A stretch of DNA of 64,000 bases from Escherichia coli O157:H7 (GTDB lineage: Bacteria > Pseudomonadota > Gammaproteobacteria > Enterobacterales > Enterobacteriaceae): NCBI RefSeq assembly GCF_013167455.1, contig NZ_CP038328.1. The stretch is one strand, 5' to 3'. Both the position numbers and the translations under genes were made by a program. The notes below the pieces were generated by a model. That model made no database searches, was not told the origin of the DNA, and saw only the letters and a list, made by a program, of their open reading frames with translations. Positions 10,298 through 29,664 of the stretch are shown in pieces; positions within the stretch are counted from its first letter, which is position 1, and the number at the start of each line of letters is the position of its first letter.

Positions 10298-10921
10298 GTG
10301 GGTATGCTTGAAGTCAGAGAGTTACTTTGTGAGCGGGATGAACGAACCTTATTTAGTGGCTTGTCATTTACGCTGAACGCAGGAGAGTGGGTACAAATCA
10401 CCGGTAGCAACGGCGCGGGGAAGACAACGCTTCTCCGTTTGCTGACGGGGTTGTCTCGCCCTGACGCAGGCGAGGTTCTCTGGCAAGGGCAGCCCTTGCA
10501 TCAGGTACGCGACAGCTACCATCAAAACCTGTTATGGATAGGCCATCAGCCGGGGATCAAAACCCGGCTGACGGCGTTAGAAAATCTGCACTTTTATCAT
10601 CGCGATGGCGATACCGCACAATGTCTGGAAGCCCTGGCGCAGGCCGGGCTTGCCGGATTCGAAGATATTCCGGTAAATCAACTTTCTGCCGGGCAACAAC
10701 GCCGCGTCGCTTTAGCGCGTCTGTGGCTGACCCGTGCCACGTTATGGATCCTCGACGAGCCTTTTACCGCGATTGACGTTAACGGCGTCGATCGTCTGAC
10801 CCAGCGTATGGCGCAGCATACAGAGCAGGGGGGGATTGTGATTCTCACTACCCACCAGCCGCTCAACGTTGCTGAAAGTAAAATTCGCCGCATTTCACTG
10901 ACGCAAACGAGGGCCGTATGA
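10298..10921 (+). CDS. ccmA: Haem exporter ATPase CcmA
   Basis: 207-aa ABC ATPase; Walker [10 protein letters not shown]. Confidence 0.9.
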
Positions 10922-20237: not shown

Positions 20238-20270
20238 TAAAAAAACCAACCTTTACGGTTGGTTTTTTTG
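20238..20270 (+). terminator. Intrinsic terminator after yejO
   Basis: aaaaaACCAACC-ttta-CGGTTGGttttttt. Confidence 0.7.
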
Positions 20271-20275
20271 GGATT

Positions 20276-20292
20276 TTTGGTCGGCACGAGAG
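20276..20292. repeat. attL: 17-bp direct repeat TTTGGTCGGCACGAGAG, a copy of the tRNA-Pro 3' end
   Basis: Identical 17-mer at 29850-29866 overlapping the tRNA-Pro 3' end. Confidence 0.85.
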
Positions 20293-20353
20293 TAGTTTAA
20301 TTGAGTATGTAACTACATGATTTTAAATAATATGCTTGATTCAACTTTTAAAC

Positions 20354-20377
20354 CGTATAACTAAACGTATAACTAAA
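20354..20377 (+). repeat. Two tandem CGTATAACTAAA motifs at left end (candidate integrase arm-type sites)
   Basis: Same 12-mer present four times near the right end (29665-29720). Confidence 0.5.
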
Positions 20378-20559
20378 ATCATTTGCTGAAAAAGTGTACA
20401 ATTTAAATGCGAGTTTTCCTGTGGTAAAAGCTCCAACCGTAACGATGTTCGTTATGGTTGCCTTGATGGTCTGCGTGGTCATTATGACCATTCAGGATTT
20501 GAAGGGTGACGCTTCCGACTTCCTCAAATTGAGGTTTCCGAAAATATCAGCGGGTTAGG

Positions 20560-20860
20560 CCAGAGTGCAAATTTGCACTCTGGAACAATTCCAACCAGTA
20601 ATCAGCGCAATTTTGCGCTTTGCTTTAAGTTCAGCGAGTAACCGAAGGCGGAATTACGCCCTCGGTACTCACATATGAGAAACGATATTTCTTCCACCGA
20701 TACCCTTTATTTGGGTATCGCGAGTAAGCCCCAAAATCTGGGTGTTACTCTTACTACCCAAACTACGGGTATTTTCCGTAATTTCATGGTCGAGTTGCAG
20801 ATCTGCAACTCACCCACCAGCCAACGCAATTTTGCGCTTTGCTTTAAGTTCAACCAGTTA
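20560..20860. other. Hairpin-dense non-coding left arm of island with duplicated composite element
   Basis: Perfect 24-bp palindrome CCAGAGTGCAAATTTGCACTCTGG (20561-20584); GAGTTGCAGATCTGCAACTC (20791-20810); near-identical direct repeats containing GCGCAATTTTGCGCTTTGCTTTAAGTTCA (20605-20633 and 20826-20853); further hairpins at 20641-20666 and 20698-20718; no ORF with RBS. Confidence 0.6.
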
Positions 20861-21139
20861 CCGCCGTAACCGCTCCGGCTTCTTCCAGTGGTACGTAATT
20901 TTTGCTTTTTCCCTGTACGTCTGCACGCGGCGACGGTAGGCCAGCATTTCAAGAACGCGGATCCGTATGTTGCGCATATCAACGCCATTAAGTTCTATAC
21001 CATCACGGCGCATCACCTCAGCAACCACACGCGCGTAATTTTCGGCGGTCACGCTGTACGGCTGCGCGGTTTTTTCGTCAGCCTGCTGGCTGATTCCGGC
21101 GACGCGGCGGATTAATCCCAGTATTTCGGCTTCTGTCAT
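20858..21139 (-). CDS. Hypothetical 93-aa protein, last gene of island packaging/capsid operon
   Basis: ORF with RBS AGGTGGAG 41 nt downstream of the capsid-like gene stop; no recognisable motif. Confidence 0.5.
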   Translation of the reverse strand: MTEAEILGLIRRVAGISQQADEKTAQPYSVTAENYARVVAEVMRRDGIELNGVDMRNIRIRVLEMLAYRRRVQTYREKAKITYHWKKPERLRR

Positions 21140-21180
21140 TTCTCCACCTGGTCAGCTATTAAACTGCGAAAATTTCGTAA

Positions 21181-22149
21181 TTATCCCGATACGGGGATCA
21201 CCATATCGGGATTGATGCCGGAAAAATCAGCTTTCGCCAGAACGGTGACGGCCTTATCGAGTTTTTGCCATCCGCAATAGGTGATTGCCCTGAACGCTGT
21301 AGCGTCATTCTGGAAAAGGCTAACCGCCCCTGATTCGGTTTTTATTACCGCCTCATCAGTTGGGGTTATAACCGTGGCTTCAACGTTAATAATCAGCTTT
21401 TGAGCGTCTATCAGCATCATGCGATCCGCCTGTTCGCTCACAATTACCGGTATTCTCAAAAGCTCTATCTGCCAGAACTCAGCATCAGTAAGCTGTAATG
21501 CGTTTTCTACGGGCAAGATTAGCGACGACGTGGAAAGCGTGTTACCGTTCGCTATGTGCTTTTTGAAAAGCTCTATGAAGTTTTCGGCCTCATCAGCACC
21601 ATTAAGCACGCCCTCAGGGGATACGCCAGCCACCTCCTGATCACTGGAAAGAAATTTTTTATCTATTTCTTTCACCGATTCCGATGTGATCAAGTCTCTG
21701 ATCGCTGAATTGGTGCCAGGGGTGCTAAATTTGATTAGCTCGTTATTCAGCATCACAATAGCGCCAAGTTTGCACAGTTTTAGCGCGCTTTCGTTTACTT
21801 CTCCCTCTTTGACAGGGATTTCTTCTGCTTCTTTAAGCCATTTACTACCCTTGCCTGATATTGACTGCAATTTTGCGCCAAACGGAAGATTAAGCGCGCT
21901 GCTGATTAGCTTGCCTGGTACAGACTGCGAAAAAATATATTCTCCAAGCTCTCTTACTATCGGCTCTGCCACCAGCGACGGCATATTATCCGTAGTCATT
22001 CCGGCAATAATGGATTTTTCAAGAAATTTCGATACTGCCGGATCATTTCTTTTCGTCATCTCTATAGCGTCTGCATGGCTGAATTTACACGATGTAAGCA
22101 CGCTGGCGGCGCGAACTGCCGAAACGCCTTTCATGTTTTTAGAAATCAT
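21181..22149 (-). CDS. Putative HK97-fold major capsid protein-like
   Basis: ~322 aa; segments GKGSKWLKEAEEIPVKEGEVNESALKLCKLGAIVMLNNELIKFS and EGVLNGADEAENF resemble conserved Phage_capsid (HK97 family) motifs from memory; start taken at second ATG (9 nt after GGAGG). Confidence 0.5.
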   Translation of the reverse strand: MISKNMKGVSAVRAASVLTSCKFSHADAIEMTKRNDPAVSKFLEKSIIAGMTTDNMPSLVAEPIVRELGEYIFSQSVPGKLISSALNLPFGAKLQSISGKGSKWLKEAEEIPVKEGEVNESALKLCKLGAIVMLNNELIKFSTPGTNSAIRDLITSESVKEIDKKFLSSDQEVAGVSPEGVLNGADEAENFIELFKKHIANGNTLSTSSLILPVENALQLTDAEFWQIELLRIPVIVSEQADRMMLIDAQKLIINVEATVITPTDEAVIKTESGAVSLFQNDATAFRAITYCGWQKLDKAVTVLAKADFSGINPDMVIPVSG

Positions 22150-22300
22150 CTTCTTCATCCTCCTGGAAGCACGGGTTTAGTGTTTCGTGAAAATATGGCA
22201 TCAGAACAGCGGCGGCCTGTAACCGTATTTCGGTCGGCTGCTGCTTGTCGTTCATGATTTCCGTGAGTACATCAATAGGGTCTGTGATGTATTCGCTCAT
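22139..22300 (-). CDS. Small acidic protein (53 aa) between terS-like and capsid-like genes; below ORF-track threshold
   Basis: ATG with GAGGT RBS 11 nt after terS stop; MSEYITDPIDVLTEIMNDKQQ...EDEEDDF; overlaps capsid-like gene start. Confidence 0.4.
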   Translation of the reverse strand: MSEYITDPIDVLTEIMNDKQQPTEIRLQAAAVLMPYFHETLNPCFQEDEEDDF

Positions 22301-22311
22301 AGTTCGCTACC

Positions 22312-22800
22312 TCAGTGTTTTAAGTCTGTTGGTGGCTTAGGGATGGGGAACCGATTTGAGTAGACACTAGCGGCATTGAGTTTTTTAACCTCTTTTTTCC
22401 CAATGCTGCCGATCTTGCGGTGGGTGAACTGGGCCAGCTTAAACGCGGCATCTAAAGCCAGTTTTGGATCTGTGTCCATGTTGTCAATCAGTATCCTGCC
22501 CATTGCTTTGATGGGGTCGGGTAGGCCGTTATCCATCATCTCAATGGTGTTAATTGATGCCCGTTCCGGTGTAACTTTTTCGGTAACTTTCTTTGTAACT
22601 TTTTTCGGTTTTGTAACCTGAAAAGTTACATCAGAAGTTACAGCCTTAAGATACTTTTTCACCTCAGGATCGTTGGATAGCTGCCAGCCTTTAACCCTTG
22701 CGGTCTTTTCGCTGTATCCAGCATGTATAGCGGCTTCCGTGGGATTTGCGCCCCTTGATAACGCATCAGCAAACCGCTTTTTTTTGGTCGTTAATGCCAT
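22312..22800 (-). CDS. Terminase small subunit-like protein (TerS)
   Basis: Starts MALTTKKKRFADALSRGANPTEAAIHAGYSEKTARVKGWQL, matching the recalled TerS HTH motif (Terminase_2-type); GAGG RBS upstream; the 46-aa N-terminal extension in the track ORF is rejected. Confidence 0.6.
   Translation of the reverse strand: MALTTKKKRFADALSRGANPTEAAIHAGYSEKTARVKGWQLSNDPEVKKYLKAVTSDVTFQVTKPKKVTKKVTEKVTPERASINTIEMMDNGLPDPIKAMGRILIDNMDTDPKLALDAAFKLAQFTHRKIGSIGKKEVKKLNAASVYSNRFPIPKPPTDLKH
22565..22643. repeat. Array of AAAGTTAC / GTAACTTT repeats inside terS-like gene (candidate pac/terminase recognition site)
   Basis: At least six copies in both orientations, encoding the KKVTKKVTEKVT peptide; similar copies upstream at 22821-22850. 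Confidence 0.4.
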
Positions 22801-22927
22801 GCAAAAACCTCGTTTTGAGGGGGTGTAACTTTTCGTGTAACTTTTTTGAAAAGCAAAATTTTCTACGAATGAGACGGGGGGCGGTGTCCAGGGCGATCGA
22901 CTTTCCGGCCGGAACACTCCCCCCCTG

Positions 22928-23089
22928 TCATTGCTCACCGAGTAACGAGATCAGGCCTTCAACTTCATCACTCAGCTTGTTTATTCGTGTCTCAAGCTCT
23001 GCGATCTTTTCCATCAATGGCGCTATGGTGTCTCTTGTTTCCTCGCCAATGGCTTTAATGATGCTTGCCTCGCGTTCTGTGATAGCCAT
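22928..23089 (-). CDS. Small coiled-coil protein (53 aa); below ORF-track threshold
   Basis: ATG with GAGG RBS 8 nt upstream, 3 nt after stop of preceding ORF; MAITEREASIIKAIGEE... Confidence 0.4.
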   Translation of the reverse strand: MAITEREASIIKAIGEETRDTIAPLMEKIAELETRINKLSDEVEGLISLLGEQ

Positions 23090-23092
23090 TGT

Positions 23093-23287
23093 TTACGCCT
23101 CACTTGTTGCAATGCCCAGGCGTTCGCGTAACAGTACGCGCGCAAGATGCCCTATTGTTGGTGTTGCCGCCCTGCCGTAGATACCTGATTCATTCATCCG
23201 GCGCACAATATCGAACTGCAACTTTTTAAGCTCGTTAAGGATTTCATGATCAATCATCACGGTAGCGCTTTGCTTTATCTCTTCCAC
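23093..23287 (-). CDS. Small hypothetical protein (64 aa, GTG start), first gene of packaging operon; possibly DNA-binding
   Basis: ORF with GGAG RBS; located just downstream of a terminator. Confidence 0.4.
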   Translation of the reverse strand: MEEIKQSATVMIDHEILNELKKLQFDIVRRMNESGIYGRAATPTIGHLARVLLRERLGIATSEA

Positions 23288-23374
23288 TTTGTTTTCTCCA
23301 GATACTTATCATTGCATAACCAGTATTTTCGATAGATTATCATTAATTAACCATCTTTGAAGATATATGAGATC

Positions 23375-23399
23375 GAAAAAAAGCCGGATTGCTCCGGCT
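23375..23399 (-). terminator. Intrinsic terminator ending the replication module
   Basis: Minus-strand AGCCGGAGCAATCCGGCT followed by TTTTTTT. Confidence 0.7.
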
Positions 23400-23417
23400 A
23401 TGTGCTCACTTCTTCGG

Positions 23418-23657
23418 TTATTCTCCAGCGCTTTTAACGTTGATGGTTGTTACCTGTTCCGCTTCGGCAATCTCCCGTTCTGTCAGCGTGGCAAAGTTTG
23501 CCGCCGCTGTGGTCATGAATGCGCTTATCAGTTCGGGATGTGCTTTCGCATATCCTTCCCCGGCGTTGCGGTCGATGATTTTTATCGACACCCTTAACCA
23601 GTGTTCCGTCAAATCAAGGGCGTGCGATTGTGATTTTTTTGTGTGCTTCGCTGTCAT
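23418..23657 (-). CDS. Hypothetical 79-aa protein downstream of origin
   Basis: ORF only; weak RBS. Confidence 0.4.
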   Translation of the reverse strand: MTAKHTKKSQSHALDLTEHWLRVSIKIIDRNAGEGYAKAHPELISAFMTTAAANFATLTEREIAEAEQVTTINVKSAGE

Positions 23658-23699
23658 AGGCTTTATCTCACAGCAGTAAATTAAAATTTTTGCGTTTTA

Positions 23700-23935
23700 A
23701 CCCTTCACCTGTTCACCTTTTGATATTTTATCTTTTAATTCATAATGTTAAGGGGTGAACAGTTTCACAAAAACTATTCACCAACTATTCACCACTGTTC
23801 ACCCTTGAAGCTCAATAAACAATCAAAAAGGTGAACAGTGAATAGTTTGGTGAACAGTTCATAAATAACTGTTCACCCTATAATATACTGATATAAAAGA
23901 TATTTATGACAGGGTGAACAGTGGTGAACAGTTAT
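23700..23935. repeat. Iteron array (GGTGAACAG / CTGTTCACC, with CTATTCACC variants) and AT-rich tracts: putative island replication origin
   Basis: At least 8 perfect 9-mers in both orientations plus variants, immediately 3' of the primase-helicase gene. Confidence 0.75.
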
Positions 23936-23944
23936 TCCATAAGT

Positions 23945-25762
23945 TTAATTTTTGCTATCGTCATTAGTGACCGATACACATGACGGCATCCAGTCTTCTG
24001 ATTCCTCCGTCAGTGTCACGTTTGAACGCAAACCGTGCTTCGTTTTCCGTTTCATATACTCCCTGCCATATTCCGCCATTGCCCCCGGCATATCTTTACC
24101 GAAGCGCGTCAGTGTTACAGGTTTACCGAATCCGTGTGCCCTCATATATGCCAGATAGGCGTGATAAAGATACCTGCGCGGACTGAACGGAATAATTTCG
24201 GCATTACCCACTAACAGACCATCACACATTACCGACGACATGAGATAGCCGCAGAAGTCCACCAGCGAATCGCCCTCGCGTTTTATCACCAGAGCTTCTT
24301 CTGATTTCTGCTGCTCATACAGCAGGCGTTTAGCTTCGTCCTGGTCAGAAAAACGAGTAAGCAGGTGGCGAATCACAACCGCCAGCTCTCCTTCTATTTT
24401 TTCTGCCAGCATGGGGTCGCGTTCGTTTTCCGGTACAACCTCCGAAAAATTGAATATCACCCGACGACGTGAAATCCCCCCGCTGCGGTCACTGAATGAC
24501 ATGGCGTTATTGTTCACCGCCAACACTACCGCCTGAATGCGTGTTGAGTAGGGGGCTTTATGCTTCGGGTCGATTGCCACCTTGTCACCGCCTGTAATGG
24601 CCTTAATTCCTGCGCCATCACCAGCGTAACGGGTCATATCCGGCATGATAATCAGCGAAAAGCCAACCACTAACGCGCGTTCCCTGGCATCTTCCAGCGC
24701 CTTCATGCTTGCCGATACCGTGTTGGCCTTACCCGCCAGCATGGTGCAAATCTCCGCCATCACGCTTTTACCACTTCCCCCTGGACCTGTTACCTCAATG
24801 AATAACTGCCAGTCGTACCGGTTCGCCAGCACCATGAATAATGCAGCCAGTACGCGATCCGCCTTGCGGTCATTCTCAGCCACCGAACGGCGTAACCACT
24901 TCCAGAAATTCGGCGCATGTGTTGCCAGCGTTTCCCCCTCTGCTGGTGGGCTGAAAGGTAATTCACTGGCAATTAACAACCAGTCGTTTTTGTTATGCTC
25001 CCGAAAATCGCCTGTCCGGGTATCAAAAACACCGTTACTGAATCCAATCAGGTTACGGGCTGTATTCCCCATTACAGGCAAACTTAACTTCATGGTATCG
25101 ACCGCCGATTTAATGGCGTTCTGCGAATAGCTGATCTCCGCATCAATGAAAATCTGTGCCATAGCTCGCTGTAATTCTTTATCCTGTACTGGCTCCCATA
25201 CAACGCCGTTGTAATAGTGAACAGTGTCAGAGTCAGCATGAATCGCCAGTTCACCGCCATAATGTGCCAGGAGAACTTCGCCGCGTTGACTTGCTCCCAT
25301 CTGGTTAAGCGCCAGTGATGAAGCGTTATCGTCTTTTACCCGCTCTTTTTTCTTTACAGGCAGTTCAACTACCTTTTTCTTTTCCGCCTGCTCTGCCCGT
25401 TCACGTTCCAGATATTCGCGCCAGTTCTCCCGTTTCTGGCTGTGCATTCCTTCAGGGTAATAATCAGCATCCCTGACACCTGCCGCTGCCAGTTTCTGCC
25501 CGATGGTATTAACAAGCCCCGAACGCAATAACCCCGCCTGATAGAGACGCACGCGATAGCGTCCGTCCGGTACGATTTGCAGGTTGTCCAGTTCGGCAAG
25601 TTGTTGCTCTCCAAGCCAGACAGGTGGCACGTTATCGCCAGCCAGTCGCCCGTCCTGTTCCTGCCACTGCTTCGCATGTGCCCACGCATCACTACCCGCA
25701 AAAATGATGACTTCCGTCATTTTGTCACGTGGCTGGTGTTTTAAATTTGGCGCTTTTTTCAT
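23945..25762 (-). CDS. Replication initiator primase-helicase (P4 alpha / D5-like)
   Basis: ~605 aa; Walker A VTGPGGSGKS in C-terminal half; N-terminal region consistent with a primase-type domain; ATGA start/stop overlap with upstream ORF. Confidence 0.8.
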   Translation of the reverse strand: MKKAPNLKHQPRDKMTEVIIFAGSDAWAHAKQWQEQDGRLAGDNVPPVWLGEQQLAELDNLQIVPDGRYRVRLYQAGLLRSGLVNTIGQKLAAAGVRDADYYPEGMHSQKRENWREYLERERAEQAEKKKVVELPVKKKERVKDDNASSLALNQMGASQRGEVLLAHYGGELAIHADSDTVHYYNGVVWEPVQDKELQRAMAQIFIDAEISYSQNAIKSAVDTMKLSLPVMGNTARNLIGFSNGVFDTRTGDFREHNKNDWLLIASELPFSPPAEGETLATHAPNFWKWLRRSVAENDRKADRVLAALFMVLANRYDWQLFIEVTGPGGSGKSVMAEICTMLAGKANTVSASMKALEDARERALVVGFSLIIMPDMTRYAGDGAGIKAITGGDKVAIDPKHKAPYSTRIQAVVLAVNNNAMSFSDRSGGISRRRVIFNFSEVVPENERDPMLAEKIEGELAVVIRHLLTRFSDQDEAKRLLYEQQKSEEALVIKREGDSLVDFCGYLMSSVMCDGLLVGNAEIIPFSPRRYLYHAYLAYMRAHGFGKPVTLTRFGKDMPGAMAEYGREYMKRKTKHGLRSNVTLTEESEDWMPSCVSVTNDDSKN

Positions 25763-26058
25763 TTCTGCTCTCTCCACGCGGCAATCATGTTTTTCAGTTC
25801 CTGTAGTTTTTTATCAACATCCATACATGGCACATGGTTATTTCTGGAAGGCGGGATTTCCCGCCTGAATCTGCTAATAAAGATCTCCACGTTCAGCGAA
25901 CTATGAAATGAATAGCCATCACGAATAAAATACACACGGTCAAACATCAGTTCTTTTACCGTTACTCTGTTACCGTTCTTATCCAGATAAATAGCGCCGG
26001 GGATAATTTTTGGGTGTGCATAACCGCTGGCAGTCAAGCCAGATAAATATGTTCTCAT
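25759..26058 (-). CDS. Hypothetical protein (99 aa), translationally coupled to primase
   Basis: ORF with RBS; its stop overlaps the primase start (ATGA). Confidence 0.5.
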   Translation of the reverse strand: MRTYLSGLTASGYAHPKIIPGAIYLDKNGNRVTVKELMFDRVYFIRDGYSFHSSLNVEIFISRFRREIPPSRNNHVPCMDVDKKLQELKNMIAAWREQK

Positions 26059-26064
26059 GATTAT

Positions 26065-26385
26065 TTATCCCCGATTTGAATCAGTATTCGCTTTCTTTAT
26101 GGCATTTAATGCATCTGTGGCATTTTCAATGGTGCACCGTAACGAAATATTAAACTGTCCAAGCATTGCCAGTAACAAACCGATATTACCCATATCAATG
26201 CGCATGACCTTTTCGTCATAGTCCTCATTTTCTGACGCATGCCACATCAGGCTACCAATTGACGCAACAGCCATTGATATATTGTCAGTAGCCCCATCCG
26301 CAGCGGAATAAACCTTTTTAGCAATATCATGCTCACAGTTAAAATGCGGATTAATCAGGTACTGGTAATTTGACATATCAGGCAT
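26065..26385 (-). CDS. Hypothetical protein (106 aa, starts MPDMSNYQY)
   Basis: Start overlaps upstream stop (ATGCCTGA); track ORF N-terminal extension rejected. Confidence 0.5.
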   Translation of the reverse strand: MPDMSNYQYLINPHFNCEHDIAKKVYSAADGATDNISMAVASIGSLMWHASENEDYDEKVMRIDMGNIGLLLAMLGQFNISLRCTIENATDALNAIKKANTDSNRG

Positions 26386-26935
26386 GGCACACCCCCTGAC
26401 GAATACGGGCGGCGAATACAGCAACACAACCGGACGGGCAACGGCTACGCGCTTCGCGTTCCGTCCAGGCGGTTACGTGGATGATTTGATGTTCTGACGC
26501 GCCAAAGATGATAAAGCGCCAGAGAAAGGCGGTTTGAGAATGTACAAGGGTAGGGATAGTAGCCATGTTGGCAGCCTCCTCAGTGTGGTTAAGATAACCG
26601 CCACCGGAAACGCCAATTTCGCTGGTGGCGGACTGTACAGGGTTGGCGTAACCGGACACTGAAGAAACCGGCGCGGATTGCTCCGCCCCCGTACAGCCCA
26701 CCATTGATAAGGTGTGACTATGCGGCACAAAAAAACACGCGGGGCGCGTGTTATGCGCTTCAGTTTTGCCCAGGACGCCAATCCCGGCACCCGTTTTATG
26801 AGGTGCGCGGGAATCATAGCTATTTTCGACACTGGCGATCAACTGGTTTTTTTCTCCGATATTCAGGGCCAGAAAACGCCACACAAAGGCCGTTTGTGTG
26901 TGTACAAGGTGTGGTATATGATTTACGGCAACCAT
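26378..26935 (-). CDS. Hypothetical protein with internal tandem duplication (possible Ash/Icd-like small-protein family); may be one 185-aa ORF or two in-frame cistrons
   Basis: AGGAG RBS before ATG at 26935; motif IPxLVHxQTAFxWRF occurs twice (N-terminus and at the internal Met at 26566, preceded by GAGGAGG); family name is an unverified recollection. Confidence 0.45.
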   Translation of the reverse strand: MVAVNHIPHLVHTQTAFVWRFLALNIGEKNQLIASVENSYDSRAPHKTGAGIGVLGKTEAHNTRPACFFVPHSHTLSMVGCTGAEQSAPVSSVSGYANPVQSATSEIGVSGGGYLNHTEEAANMATIPTLVHSQTAFLWRFIIFGASEHQIIHVTAWTEREARSRCPSGCVAVFAARIRQGVCHA

Positions 26936-26966
26936 AACGGCTCCTAGTTTACGTTGTTGGTTAGAA

Positions 26967-27008
26967 GCCCTGCGAGTGGTAACGACACTTGCGGGGCTTT
27001 GTCTTTTC
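26967..27008 (+). terminator. Plus-strand-specific terminator-like hairpin within the 5' leader region of the minus-strand replication operon
   Basis: 12-bp stem GCCCTGCGAGTG/CACTTGCGGGGC; both mismatches are G-U wobbles only in the plus-strand RNA; followed by TTTGTCTTTTC. Confidence 0.45.
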
Positions 27009-27026
27009 ATCGATTACCTTGATAAA

Positions 27027-27108
27027 GGTGTCAGCCACTATATTAGTAACAGGTGTCAGCCACGTCAATAGTGTTTTTCCGTTTTCTTGTGTGTATACTG
27101 TCAGCCAC
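27027..27108. promoter_or_regulatory. Divergent promoter region with three GTCAGCCAC operator-like repeats
   Basis: GGTGTCAGCCAC at 27027-27038 and 27052-27063, TGTCAGCCAC at 27099-27108 adjacent to a TATACT -10-like hexamer. Confidence 0.55.
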
Positions 27109-27129
27109 CTAATAACGAGGAAATCAGAT

Positions 27130-27309
27130 ATGGCAACAAAAGCAGTTAATGCAAAATCCAAAAAGCTTGAGGCTCGAGTACCACACGCAATAGCTGATGC
27201 TGTAGAAAATTTAAAGGAAGATGGCGAAAGTACAGGGCAATTTATCGTTTCGGCACTTGAAGGCGAGATCAAACGCCGCCAGCGCCGCAAGGCCAAAGAA
27301 TCAGAATAA
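27130..27309 (+). CDS. Small ribbon-helix-helix-like DNA-binding protein (candidate island repressor)
   Basis: 59-aa ORF with AGGAAA RBS; predicted beta-strand/helix/helix pattern typical of Arc/CopG-type proteins; divergent from replication operon. Confidence 0.5.
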   Translation: MATKAVNAKSKKLEARVPHAIADAVENLKEDGESTGQFIVSALEGEIKRRQRRKAKESE

Positions 27310-27366
27310 TCACTATCAGCGCCGTGGTGTGAGGTATTACGGCGCATTGCTATGCAGGACAACACA

Positions 27367-27540
27367 ATGACCGATAAAGAATTGACCAAAACATTATCAC
27401 CGGCACGGAAAAGACGGCGCAGAAAGATAGAGCATGAATCAGAAAGATTCGCACCATGTGCTTTTGCCCTTGAGCAATTCCTTAAAGAGTACAGGGAAAA
27501 GCGCTCATTGCAGGTATGGCAACGAACTGAACCAGACTGA
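27367..27540 (+). CDS. Small basic hypothetical protein (~57 aa)
   Basis: ORF with AGGA RBS; arginine-rich segment RKRRRRK. Confidence 0.35.
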   Translation: MTDKELTKTLSPARKRRRRKIEHESERFAPCAFALEQFLKEYREKRSLQVWQRTEPD

Positions 27541-27633
27541 TTGCATTGCCCACCAGCCTGATAGCGGCTATCATCCCCGTGCTTATGTTTGGGATCACAT
27601 ACACATAAGGCGCAGCGGGTTAATTGTTCAGAA

Positions 27634-27660
27634 AGGCGGCTCCATATCGGGGCCGCTTTT
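27634..27660 (+). terminator. Intrinsic terminator after plus-strand small genes
   Basis: 8-bp stem GCGGCTCC/GGGGCCGC (one G-U), loop ATATC, then TTTTTT. Confidence 0.7.
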
Positions 27661-27688
27661 TTCGTGTTTGTCATATCTGTGATACCCG

Positions 27689-27895
27689 TTAAGCAGCCGT
27701 TCCGCGTGCTTCCTCTTCGCGTTCTTTCTGCCAGGACAACACATCATCCTCATACCATCCGCGACGGCGTAAACCAACGCGAAAACCCTGCGGAAATTCT
27801 CCGGCGTTGATCATGCTTTGCAGCGTGCTGTCTGCCTTGATGTGGATAATTTTTTTTACTTCCTGGCGAAAGATAATTTTTCTGATTGCTTCCAT
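27689..27895 (-). CDS. alpA: AlpA-family phage regulatory protein / excisionase-like HTH
   Basis: 68-aa ORF; motif STLQSMINAGEFPQGFRVGLRRRGWYEDDVLSW resembles AlpA. Confidence 0.75.
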   Translation of the reverse strand: MEAIRKIIFRQEVKKIIHIKADSTLQSMINAGEFPQGFRVGLRRRGWYEDDVLSWQKEREEEARGTAA

Positions 27896-27912
27896 CGTGA
27901 TTTACCTTGTGA

Positions 27913-27930
27913 ATCCGGTGTATTCCGGTG
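27913..27930. promoter_or_regulatory. Two TCCGGTG motifs upstream of alpA (same motif repeated upstream of int)
   Basis: aATCCGGTGtaTTCCGGTGa; the same heptamer occurs about 5 times at 29743-29844. Confidence 0.4.
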
Positions 27931-28033
27931 ACAAATACGGTAAATCATCGGATATGGGTAAAAACAGTTCCCACCGTTTTTAAACGGTATACACCGTTTT
28001 TTATATTGATGATTTGAAATGGAATTATAAAAA

Positions 28034-28060
28034 AAGCGGCATTTCTGCCGCTTCCAGGAT
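28034..28060 (-). terminator. Intrinsic terminator after the 83-aa ORF
   Basis: Minus-strand GGAAGCGGCAGAAATGCCGC followed by TTTTTTT. Confidence 0.6.
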
Positions 28061-28062
28061 TG

Positions 28063-28314
28063 TTACCGCCATTTTTTGGGCCTGCCTCCGATCTTCATAG
28101 ATGCCGGACGTACGACCTTATCAATACTTACCGCCAGATTTCTGGAAGCGCCACGGGATACCAGAAAATCTACTACCTGTTTTTTTGATGGGGCCGTCGT
28201 TCTGTCCTCCGGATCGTAGGTTGACCAAAATTCATGCTGAACCATCAGGGCCAGTTGCAGCCCGTCGCAATTGCATCTGATATTTTTTTGCATCTTAACG
28301 GTTTCATGTTTCAC
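28063..28314 (-). CDS. Hypothetical 83-aa protein between int and alpA (CxC motif, basic C-terminus)
   Basis: ORF only. Confidence 0.4.
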   Translation of the reverse strand: MKHETVKMQKNIRCNCDGLQLALMVQHEFWSTYDPEDRTTAPSKKQVVDFLVSRGASRNLAVSIDKVVRPASMKIGGRPKKWR

Positions 28315-28391
28315 GGCCTTGTCGTTAAATTTGATGCAATTATACGACGGTTTTACATGGTTTTCGTAGTTTTTACTGGTTTTCTGTACAG

Positions 28392-29633
28392 CTACACGGC
28401 TCGGATACCCCTTTTACCACTGGCGAGGGTTACGCCCGTCGCCGCGGCCTCGACAAATTCGCCCCACCAGCGCATCAGCACGATGCGTTTTTCTATGTAG
28501 TTGCTCCGGTTGTATGCCCGTCTAACTTCGTTGGTGTCGACGTGGGCAAGTGCCGCCTCTATTACGTCCGGCTCGAATCCTTCCTCGTTCGCTGCTGTGC
28601 TGAATATGGCGCGTAATCCATGAGACACCAGCACGCCAGCGAATCCCATACGCCGCAATGCTGCGTTAGCTGTCTGGCTGTTCATCGGCTGCTGTGGGTC
28701 TTTCAGACTTGGGAAAACGTAATTGCGGTGGTGGCTGATTGGTTTCATGGCCTCCAGCACCGCCATAGCCTGACCGGAAAGCGGGATAACGTGATCCCTG
28801 CGCATCTTCATGCGTCCGGCAGGTATCGTCCATTGCTTCGCGTCCAGGTTGATTTCATCCCACCGCGTTGATGACGCTTCGGCGGGACGGGTTACGGTCA
28901 GTAACTGCCATTCAATCAGTAATCTGGTCTGCCGTTCTGTTGCCGATACTGATAAAGCCTGCATAAGCTCGGGCAGCTGTTCGGGGCGGATTGTTGGCAT
29001 ATGTTTTTTTACAGGTGAGGGAAACGCCTTACGCACATTCATAGCCGGATTGGCATCAATCAGCCCACTGTTGGCGGCGTAATCCATTACCTCATTAACG
29101 CGCTGTAAAACCCGCTTGAGTGTTTCCAGGTTGCCGCGCTCCTTGATGGGGGTAAGCACTTCAACGAACCTTCGGGCGGTGAGGGTATCTATTGGCGTGT
29201 TGCCGATGAACGGGAATACATATTTATCCAGCGAACGCCAGATGTCTTTAATCGTGTTGGGGGCCAGATTCTGGCTGATTTTCACCTGGTACCATGCCGC
29301 CGCCACATTTTCGAACGTGTTCCCTTGTCTTCGGGCCTCTGTCTCTCTTTTTTGCCTCTCGTGGTCCTGCGGGTCAGTTCCGGCACTGATTAACGTCCTG
29401 TACTCGCTACGGCGTTTTCTGGCATCAGCCAGGGAAACATCTTCAAGCGATCCAAAACTCAGCAATATTCTTTTTTTGTCCGATGGTCGGTAGTAGGAAA
29501 ATCTCCAGAGTTTTGATCCAGACGGTTTGACCAGGAGAAAAAGCCCTCCGCCGTCCTGCAGGGTGTACTCCTTTTGCGCTGGTCTGGCTGCTTTGATCTG
29601 CACTGTGGTTAATGGGTGTGTTTTTCTCGCCAT
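28392..29633 (-). CDS. int: Tyrosine recombinase, P4-family integrase
   Basis: ~413 aa from MARKTHPLT; N-terminal DGGGLFLLVKPSGSKLWRF arm-binding-like domain; catalytic HGLR and RAYNRSNY(Y) motifs; adjacent to tRNA. Confidence 0.9.
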   Translation of the reverse strand: MARKTHPLTTVQIKAARPAQKEYTLQDGGGLFLLVKPSGSKLWRFSYYRPSDKKRILLSFGSLEDVSLADARKRRSEYRTLISAGTDPQDHERQKRETEARRQGNTFENVAAAWYQVKISQNLAPNTIKDIWRSLDKYVFPFIGNTPIDTLTARRFVEVLTPIKERGNLETLKRVLQRVNEVMDYAANSGLIDANPAMNVRKAFPSPVKKHMPTIRPEQLPELMQALSVSATERQTRLLIEWQLLTVTRPAEASSTRWDEINLDAKQWTIPAGRMKMRRDHVIPLSGQAMAVLEAMKPISHHRNYVFPSLKDPQQPMNSQTANAALRRMGFAGVLVSHGLRAIFSTAANEEGFEPDVIEAALAHVDTNEVRRAYNRSNYIEKRIVLMRWWGEFVEAAATGVTLASGKRGIRAV

Positions 29634-29664
29634 ATGTCTATGATTCCACACGAAAAAACAGGGT

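Follow-up and report, generated by a model that had tools for sequence, protein, structure and literature searches.

A YlcI/YnfO-family protein with a predicted ribbon-helix-helix fold and its putative three-site operator in a phage satellite of Escherichia coli O157:H7

A 64,000-nucleotide stretch of Escherichia coli O157:H7 DNA (contig NZ_CP038328.1 of assembly GCF_013167455.1), hereafter called the window, was analyzed around a divergent control region within an island that resembles a phage satellite. The region separates a leftward operon containing a primase gene from a rightward gene (27130–27309, + strand), which encodes a 59-amino-acid (59-aa) protein of the YlcI/YnfO family with a predicted ribbon-helix-helix (RHH) fold. 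The 59-aa protein is probably a small DNA-binding repressor that acts on three matching sites and silences both the replication operon and its own gene. Autoregulation and operon repression by one small repressor had been suggested by the original prediction, made from the sequence alone, and comparative and structural evidence supports this suggestion, with two sites placed on the operon promoter and one on the promoter of the gene itself. Systems of this kind are known; what is new is the function proposed for the family, the series of recognition pairs, and the place of the module in Gram-negative satellites.

Repeat sites and promoters of the control region

Exact copies of the 9-nt GTCAGCCAC were found on the + strand at 27030–27038, 27055–27063, and 27100–27108, where the original prediction had placed three copies between the divergent operon and the 59-aa gene. 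Both strands of the whole 64-kb window contained two further exact copies, at 10723 and 38795, both on the − strand. Simple arithmetic gives an expectation of approximately 0.5 exact copies for 128 kb, both strands counted, and three copies inside 79 bp are therefore not a chance occurrence. When up to one mismatch was allowed, 35 occurrences were found compared with 12.65 expected from shuffled sequences, a figure that does not count exact copies. Copies 1 and 2 have 13 nt in common, AGGTGTCAGCCAC, in addition to similar flanks. The true unit was longer than nine nucleotides, an 11-bp site of the form GTG-N5-CAC starting at 27028, 27053, and 27098. No additional copy of the 11-mer with up to two mismatches was found in a regulatory position in the island.

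The three sites lie directly on promoter elements. A promoter scan identified a sigma-70 promoter of the leftward operon at 27040–27068 on the − strand, with TTGACG (27068–27063), a 17-nt spacer, and TAATAT (27045–27040). This near-consensus promoter drives the Icd-like/primase operon. Putative operator site 1 (27028–27038, + strand; GTGTCAGCCAC) starts one base past the leftward −10 element, extends from approximately −5 to +6, and spans the predicted start near 27033. Site 2 (27053–27063, + strand; also GTGTCAGCCAC) occupies the spacer of the same promoter and touches its −35 element. Because sites 1 and 2 are on the start point and on the −35/−10 spacer, bound protein should block RNA polymerase. 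Site 3 (27098–27108, + strand; CTGTCAGCCAC) covers the last two bases of the −10-like TATACT of the RHH gene promoter (27094–27099, + strand) and overlaps the predicted transcript start near 27106; the original prediction had noticed that the third copy abuts this TATACT. This promoter is missing a good −35 element and has a T-rich tract upstream, and the Shine-Dalgarno sequence GAGG of the 59-aa open reading frame (ORF) is located at 27117–27120. The strong − strand promoter under sites 1 and 2 had been overlooked earlier, as had a layer of C4/CI-type and isrK/seqA-like RNAs in the operon leader.

Fifty-one distinct homologous control regions were compared without gaps to derive a conserved footprint. 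The best-conserved bases were the GTG/CAC arms, the T tract, and the ribosome-binding site, together with TCAA, which corresponds to the leftward −35 element, and A...TA (TAnnnT), which corresponds to the leftward −10 element. The sequence GnGTATACTG was almost invariant. In this footprint, both promoters keep precisely the bases that define them.

Immediately to the left of site 1 (26964–27000), a long hairpin rich in GC precedes a run of T residues on the + strand, and segments resembling GGGGCTTTG, GGGCTTCG, or TTCGGGGCG occupy its position in most sister loci. In the − strand reading, the operon transcript would carry this hairpin as a 5′ stem-loop; in the + strand reading, it would halt antisense transcripts before the control region.

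The arrangement was then compared among 73 loci with a homologue of the gene, obtained from a scan of one genome per species and distributed over Pectobacterium, Xenorhabdus, Yersinia, Serratia, Proteus, Edwardsiella, Klebsiella, Enterobacter, and other Enterobacterales. Three related 11-mers were present at approximately −102, −77, and −32 from the ATG in 60 of the 73 loci (in shuffled controls, the 95th percentile was 7–8 of 11 matches), and the distance from site 2 to site 3 was exactly 45 nt in 54 of these 60. Among the resulting 180 sites, positions 2, 3, 9, 10, and 11 were almost invariant, giving the consensus (G/C)TG-N5-CAC; the N5 core differed among loci and was identical in the three sites of one locus. 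Site 1 was inverted relative to sites 2 and 3 in several classes, which the pseudo-symmetry of the site allows. An E. coli copy with 93% identity carried five substitutions in the 135-nt control region and none inside the 33 nt of the sites. Outside the control region, at places such as alpA, int, or the origin, four operator copies were found over all loci compared with 7.2 expected by chance.

Several loci departed from this layout. Two Xenorhabdus loci (L014 and L072) had lost, apparently by deletion, all but one operator, which directly precedes the gene, and a third (L007) had two. In Klebsiella pneumoniae (L074), an inverted pair, GTGCACCCCCAC and GTGGGGGTACAC, accompanied a 67-aa protein with the strand AQKKI. 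Three genomes carried two RHH modules of different specificity 4.5–5 kb apart on one contig (L002/L052, L028/L029, and L068/L069), which suggests tandem or nested satellites. There was no signal that co-resident islands avoid the same specificity class, as 3 of 29 pairs were of the same class compared with 2.5 expected.

The 59-aa protein and its match to the operator core

The 59-aa protein matched the NCBIfam model NF041551 (YlcI_YnfO_N) over residues 9–50 with 60.6 bits against a cutoff of 30, and the Prokaryotic Genome Annotation Pipeline (PGAP) also assigns the YlcI/YnfO name in RefSeq genomes. PHROG 949 was matched as well; neither PHROG 949 nor YlcI_YnfO_N has an assigned function. The family occupies a small part of sequence space (96 representatives at 50% identity, E ≤ 1e-3), yet 838 of the 5426 complete genomes of E. 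coli contained matches to the module. A tblastn search of 50,697 phage records yielded no homologue, the lambdoid YlcI/YnfO copies being too distant for the 59-aa query.

The RHH-like character that the original prediction had attributed to the protein agreed with the modeled fold. The AlphaFold2 monomer, built with 34 homologues, had a mean predicted local distance difference test (pLDDT) score of 88.8 and a beta-alpha-alpha arrangement, with an extended N-terminus (strand 10–18), a helix at 19–28, and a long helix at 35–58. In a linker-joined two-copy model, which is likewise a prediction, strands 10–18 and 94–102 had pLDDT values >90 and no other strands were available for pairing, as would be expected if the N-termini pair into a ribbon. 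By predicted fold the protein would be placed in the RHH superfamily, and by sequence family it is a YlcI/YnfO protein. In a weak profile alignment made with hhalign, K12, E14, and R16 were aligned to Q9, N11, and R13 of Arc, the base-contacting side chains of Arc, and a single weak match to an 'Arc-like' PHROG was obtained (E value, 0.088). Throughout the family alignment, positions 13, 15, and 17 were always hydrophobic or small, R16 was invariant, and positions 11, 12, and 14 were variable; the pattern of residues 11–17 is that of a strand with one face toward the core and the other presumably toward DNA. The C-terminal helix was basic and invariant, and includes the invariant segment EIKRRQRRK.

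The variable strand residues and the operator core changed together. Residues 11–15 fell into 21 strand types and the cores into 19, and these occurred in 24 combinations, which is near one-to-one. The pairs of strand and N5 included KKLEA with TCAGC, which is the pair of the window, KRFDV with TCGGA, QTLAA with TTGAA, QKMSA with GCACC, QKIHA with TGTTC, QMTTV with AAATA, QQLNA with AATCG, QQIVS with AATGC, QSVTA with TCTTA, and LQVSV with AACAC. Further classes were found in other E. coli islands, such as QALKA with GTGTGGCCCAC. The distance between operator cores correlated with the distance between strands (r = 0.685); when the rest of the protein was controlled for, a partial correlation of 0.52 remained (permutation p ≤ 5e-4). 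With the strand controlled for, the partial correlation of the operator with the spacer DNA was 0.06, indicating that the spacer adds nothing. A listing of pairs that combine the most similar proteins with different operators is skewed by a truncated locus (L073) and was left out of account.

Neighboring genes did not follow the operator in the same way. Xenorhabdus loci shared both the operator and the KKLEA strand with the window; their integrases were 20–23% identical and their primases approximately 50% identical, and no AlpA or orf62 match was detected in these same-operator loci. Conversely, loci with primases 74–86% identical to that of the window had different strands and different operators. 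As far as sequence comparison can tell, operator identity tracks the 59-aa protein and no other neighbor, whether primase, integrase, AlpA, or spacer DNA. Comparative support for a putative repressor/operator pair is strong.

Proposed regulation and its alternatives

In the mechanism that we consider likely, an RHH dimer or higher oligomer of the 59-aa protein would bind the three operators of the 120-bp divergent control region, with the ribbon of residues 10–18 reading GTG-N5-CAC. Occupation of sites 1 and 2 would block the strong, constitutive-looking leftward promoter, and site 3, over the −10 element and start of the gene itself, would provide negative autoregulation. The module would hold the replication operon silent during quiescence of the island. 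Site 2 may also stimulate the rightward promoter that has no −35 element, as Mnt does in P22, and in the window island the C4/CI-type RNA would form a second lock downstream of the leftward promoter.

The lifting of repression would most likely be indirect. An AlpA/Vis-type helix-turn-helix (HTH) gene (27689–27895, − strand) runs in the same direction as the leftward operon and converges on the RHH gene. Between this gene and the RHH cassette lies the intrinsic terminator (27630–27662, + strand) of a transcript that comprises the RHH gene and a small ORF, orf62 (27352–27540, + strand; 62 aa, or 57 aa from the probable true start at 27367; phrog_21027). Read on the − strand, the terminator hairpin is followed by just three T residues. 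Because alpA is co-oriented with the operon and the hairpin is a poor terminator in that direction, AlpA-dependent transcription could cross the RHH gene. Such transcription from the alpA side, antisense to the RHH gene, could interfere with that gene and then enter the operon. Alternatively or additionally, repression may be lifted by Bro/Ant-type proteins encoded beside the module in sister islands; Bro-N and AntA/AntB genes were found in the alpA-side transcription unit of sister E. coli islands.

The same module was identified in the model island EcCICFT073 (CFT073, 1377930–1388654), which contains int, an HTH gene, a 57-aa ORF, the YlcI/YnfO gene, and a divergent operon running from an Icd-like gene through DUF4222 to a primase gene, so that the gene order around the module is that of the window island. 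After the primase operon follow genes for a single-stranded DNA-binding protein, PerC, a capsid protein, and a head-decoration protein; the capsid (c1499) and decoration (c1500) genes belong to EcCICFT073 (PMC6092414). The YlcI homologue of this island has the strand QALKA, and two copies of GTGTGGCCCAC and one of CTGTCCCCCAC precede its gene in the same layout. The product of the 57-aa ORF (L081, 40242–40415) is 100% identical to residues 6–62 of the window orf62. Since the orf62 products are identical and the RHH classes differ (KKLEA vs. QALKA), a mosaic junction is expected at or near the 3′ end of the RHH gene. In the literature we found no mention of the small YlcI/YnfO gene of EcCICFT073 and no repressor identified for the island. 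We suggest, tentatively and with less than even confidence, that the YlcI/YnfO RHH protein may be the quiescence repressor so far missing for Gram-negative phage-inducible chromosomal islands (PICIs), including EcCICFT073, that residues 11–15 and N5 may form a simple, swappable code of at least 19 specificities, and that induction may override the repressor, through either AlpA-driven antisense transcription or Bro/Ant-type antirepressors encoded nearby.

The original prediction had gone further and proposed a master switch of the island whose inactivation by a helper phage would be obligatory. This proposal was not supported, as EcCICFT073 carries the same module and a plasmid-borne AlpA suffices for its induction in the absence of a helper (PMC6092414). 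AlpA is an activator turned on by helpers; it is necessary and sufficient for the induction of EcCICFT073, and cloned AlpA alone leads to excision and replication (PMC6092414). Because helpers act via alpA (PMC6092414), direct inactivation of the RHH protein by a helper protein is not required.

Several points weigh against regulation by the 59-aa protein as proposed here. Since AlpA alone induces EcCICFT073 (PMC6092414), the RHH protein cannot be the only or the dominant switch. The 11-bp sites are spaced 25 and 45 bp apart, which is out of helical phase. Characterized RHH repressors, by contrast, usually bind cooperatively to adjacent repeats. No match to the protein was found in Pfam at E ≤ 0.1, RHH families included, among PDB sequences by profile search at E ≤ 10, or by Foldseek, and hhalign gave weak probabilities of 10% for Arc and 5% for CopG, so that the protein has no sequence match to a curated or solved RHH protein. 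The partial correlation of the operator with the rest of the protein was 0.39, and because gene and sites are physically linked, the co-variation is partly a matter of shared descent. Finally, no functional, binding, or expression study was found in the literature on YlcI/YnfO, RHH proteins in PICIs, and Icd-like satellites.

One alternative, which we regard as possible but on balance doubtful, is that the RHH protein binds the sites specifically as a homeostatic or dual regulator and that quiescence results mainly from the absence of AlpA and, in the window island, from the C4/CI-type RNA. Mnt of P22 offers a precedent, as it represses one promoter and stimulates its own. The center of site 2 lies approximately 48 bp before the transcription start predicted for the RHH promoter, an activator-type position at a promoter without a −35 element; C4 and isrK RNAs are present in the operon leader; and AlpA is both necessary and sufficient in EcCICFT073 (PMC6092414). 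However, two of the three sites lie on the near-consensus leftward promoter in a layout that fits repression, and the C4/isrK RNA layer was absent from all 18 sister loci tested, every one of which keeps the RHH module. Because the RNA layer is missing from these loci, the protein switch would be the conserved core and the RNA an add-on.

It is improbable that another protein of the island binds these three sites, be it the AlpA/Vis-type protein, the primase, for which they would be iterons, or the Icd-like product. Vis of P4 acts at the early promoter region of P4, and primases of this type bind repeated sites. The identity of the operator is nevertheless independent of the similarity of AlpA, integrase, and primase, and no operator copies are located near att or the origin. 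Separate repeats are available at both places, as eight copies of TGTTCACC lie by the primase gene and GTATAACTAAA is carried in the attachment (att) arms. The GTCAGCCAC sites, being independent of primase similarity and distinct from the TGTTCACC cluster, do not resemble P4-type iterons.

We consider it very improbable that the 59-aa protein is an RHH antitoxin paired with orf62 and that the repeats are the autoregulatory operator of the pair. A small ORF does lie downstream in the same direction, but orf62 matches no toxin family, two of the three sites are on the other promoter, and orf62, which stands outside the conserved module, is absent from all 73 other loci, where the RHH gene is mostly alone between a convergent alpA and the divergent operon. 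The absence of orf62 from every one of these loci removes the toxin–antitoxin reading. That the repeats are functionless products of chance or recent local duplication has a negligible probability. The 13 nt and similar flanks shared by copies 1 and 2 are what a tandem duplication would leave, but the three-site layout is kept across genera and the copies change in concert while the spacers diverge freely.

Repression of the operon by the 59-aa protein can be compared with the immI region of P22, in which the RHH repressors Arc and Mnt act at the divergent promoters Pant and Pmnt. The module as proposed here shares with immI small RHH proteins, autoregulation, and control of an 'anti-immunity' or early function of a temperate element, and in both the operators lie between the −35 and −10 elements and over the start of a strong promoter facing that of the repressor. 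The module differs from immI in having one protein instead of two, with weak profile similarity (hhalign, 10%); in having three separated 11-bp sites instead of one symmetric operator of 21 bp or 17 bp; and in controlling an operon with satellite Icd-like and primase genes. The immI region of P1/P7 (c4-icd-ant) and the immunity system of P4 (CI RNA, seqA/seqC, PLE/PLL, Vis) resemble the window in its C4-family RNA, its isrK/seqA-like element, and its Icd-like ORFs directly past the promoter. P4 is also similar in that alpA of the window is upstream and co-oriented, like vis, and in the TGTTCACC repeats by the primase gene. Unlike these systems, the window encodes a 59-aa protein for which the phage records, where P4 would be expected, contained no homologue, and its RNA layer is missing from the 18 sister loci, which keep the RHH module.

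Stl/Rpr of Gram-positive PICIs, the Staphylococcus aureus pathogenicity islands (SaPIs), are likewise divergent from a satellite excision/replication operon and are similar in their proposed silencing role. They are, however, larger HTH proteins whose repression is lifted when a helper protein binds them directly, whereas an RHH fold is predicted here; the gene in the window points away from int instead of being co-oriented with it, and the model island is induced via AlpA (PMC6092414). The module also shares short repeated units, direct or inverted, with the plasmid RHH repressors omega of pSM19035 and CopG of pMV158. The 59-aa protein belongs to the sequence family of neither, and omega requires contiguous 7-bp heptads, in contrast to the 11-bp units far apart in the window. 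Two E. coli K-12 proteins, YlcI (DLP12) and YnfO (Qin), share the NF041551 N-terminal domain, and no functional paper on them was found; unlike the gene in the window, ynfO of CFT073 lies beside a prophage terminase gene and not at a divergent replication promoter. Our analysis suggests that the module works like Arc/Mnt control of Pant and is positioned like Stl/Rpr, being a sequence-family member of neither.

These results propose a function, that of a sequence-specific repressor, and a target site for a family named only after two K-12 y-genes. As the same gene and three-site layout are present in the model island EcCICFT073, the question is testable in an existing system. In addition, approximately 20 matched strand/operator pairs on a fixed scaffold provide a data set for RHH recognition rules and for the design of orthogonal repressors.

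The satellite island and its other elements

The island of approximately 9.6 kb (~20285–29860) lies between 32-nt repeats of the tRNA-Pro 3′ end (20269–20300 and 29843–29874); the tRNA-Pro gene is located at 29852–29928, and yejM adjoins the island. A tyrosine integrase gene (28392–29651, − strand) is separated by an 83-aa ORF from the AlpA/Vis-type gene. The latter had a weak match to Pfam Phage_AlpA and a match to a PHROG of excisionase/regulator function, and PGAP names it either 'AlpA family' or 'helix-turn-helix transcriptional regulator'. With int, an AlpA-like gene, a D5/P4 primase gene, an att site at tRNA-Pro, a size of approximately 9.6 kb, and a small terminase subunit gene and one capsid gene only, the island is, judged by its gene content, a Gram-negative PICI-type phage satellite.

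The original prediction had described the divergent unit as a replication operon. This holds for the D5/P4-type primase-helicase gene (23945–25777, − strand), but the operon starts with an 'ash'/Icd-like leader that holds two RNA genes. The leader and first reading frames (26378–26935, − strand) were recognized by Pfam Phage_ASH and by PGAP names, and contain an isrK/seqA-like element (26730–26806, − strand; Rfam isrK, 66 bits), a C4/CI-type antisense RNA (26621–26708, − strand; Rfam C4, 77.6 bits), and a 62-aa Icd-like ORF (26378–26566, − strand). The C4 and isrK models of Rfam pick up relatives of the P4 CI RNA and seqA in Gram-negative PICIs (PMC10111431). The controlled operon continues with a 120-aa ORF (26065–26427, − strand) and a DUF4222 gene (25759–26058, − strand) before the primase gene, and a small terminase subunit gene and one capsid gene lie beyond it.

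Additional details of the leader were observed. An ORF annotated as 'ash family protein' overlaps both RNA elements (26621–26806, − strand), and a weak match to a c4-a1b1 target is located at 26767–26819. Copies of the N-terminal ~25 residues of the Icd-like reading frame occur on both sides of these elements (starts at 26935 and 26566), which recalls the repeated targets in P1/P4 immunity.

Just past the primase gene, eight TGTTCACC repeats in both orientations occupy 23710–23930; the window contained 11 copies in total compared with 1.6 expected. TGTTCACC is the octamer of the P4 origin. The cluster is probably the P4-type replication origin of the island, and its repeats are distinct from the operators. 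Six copies of GTATAACTAAA were found in the att arms (20355–20377 and 29665–29720); the left end has two and the integrase end four, with two copies inverted. These repeats, which are unrelated to the operator repeat, probably serve as arm-type binding sites for the integrase or an excisionase.

Upstream of alpA, the inverted repeat AAACGGT-ATAC-ACCGTTT is located at 27982–27999 with a second AAAACGGTG adjoining, a candidate site for an activator of alpA, which could be AlpA or a factor from a helper. The Rfam int-alpA RNA motif (RF02996) was not found in the window island and was present between int and alpA in 7 of the 18 sister loci (L015, L019, L040, L047, L048, L064, and L069). Near the left end of the island, a 53-nt direct repeat occurs at 20592–20644 and 20811–20863, with copies that are 83% identical and 219 nt apart. 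Short repeats of the GTAACTTT type were also present within the small terminase gene region (22568–22847).
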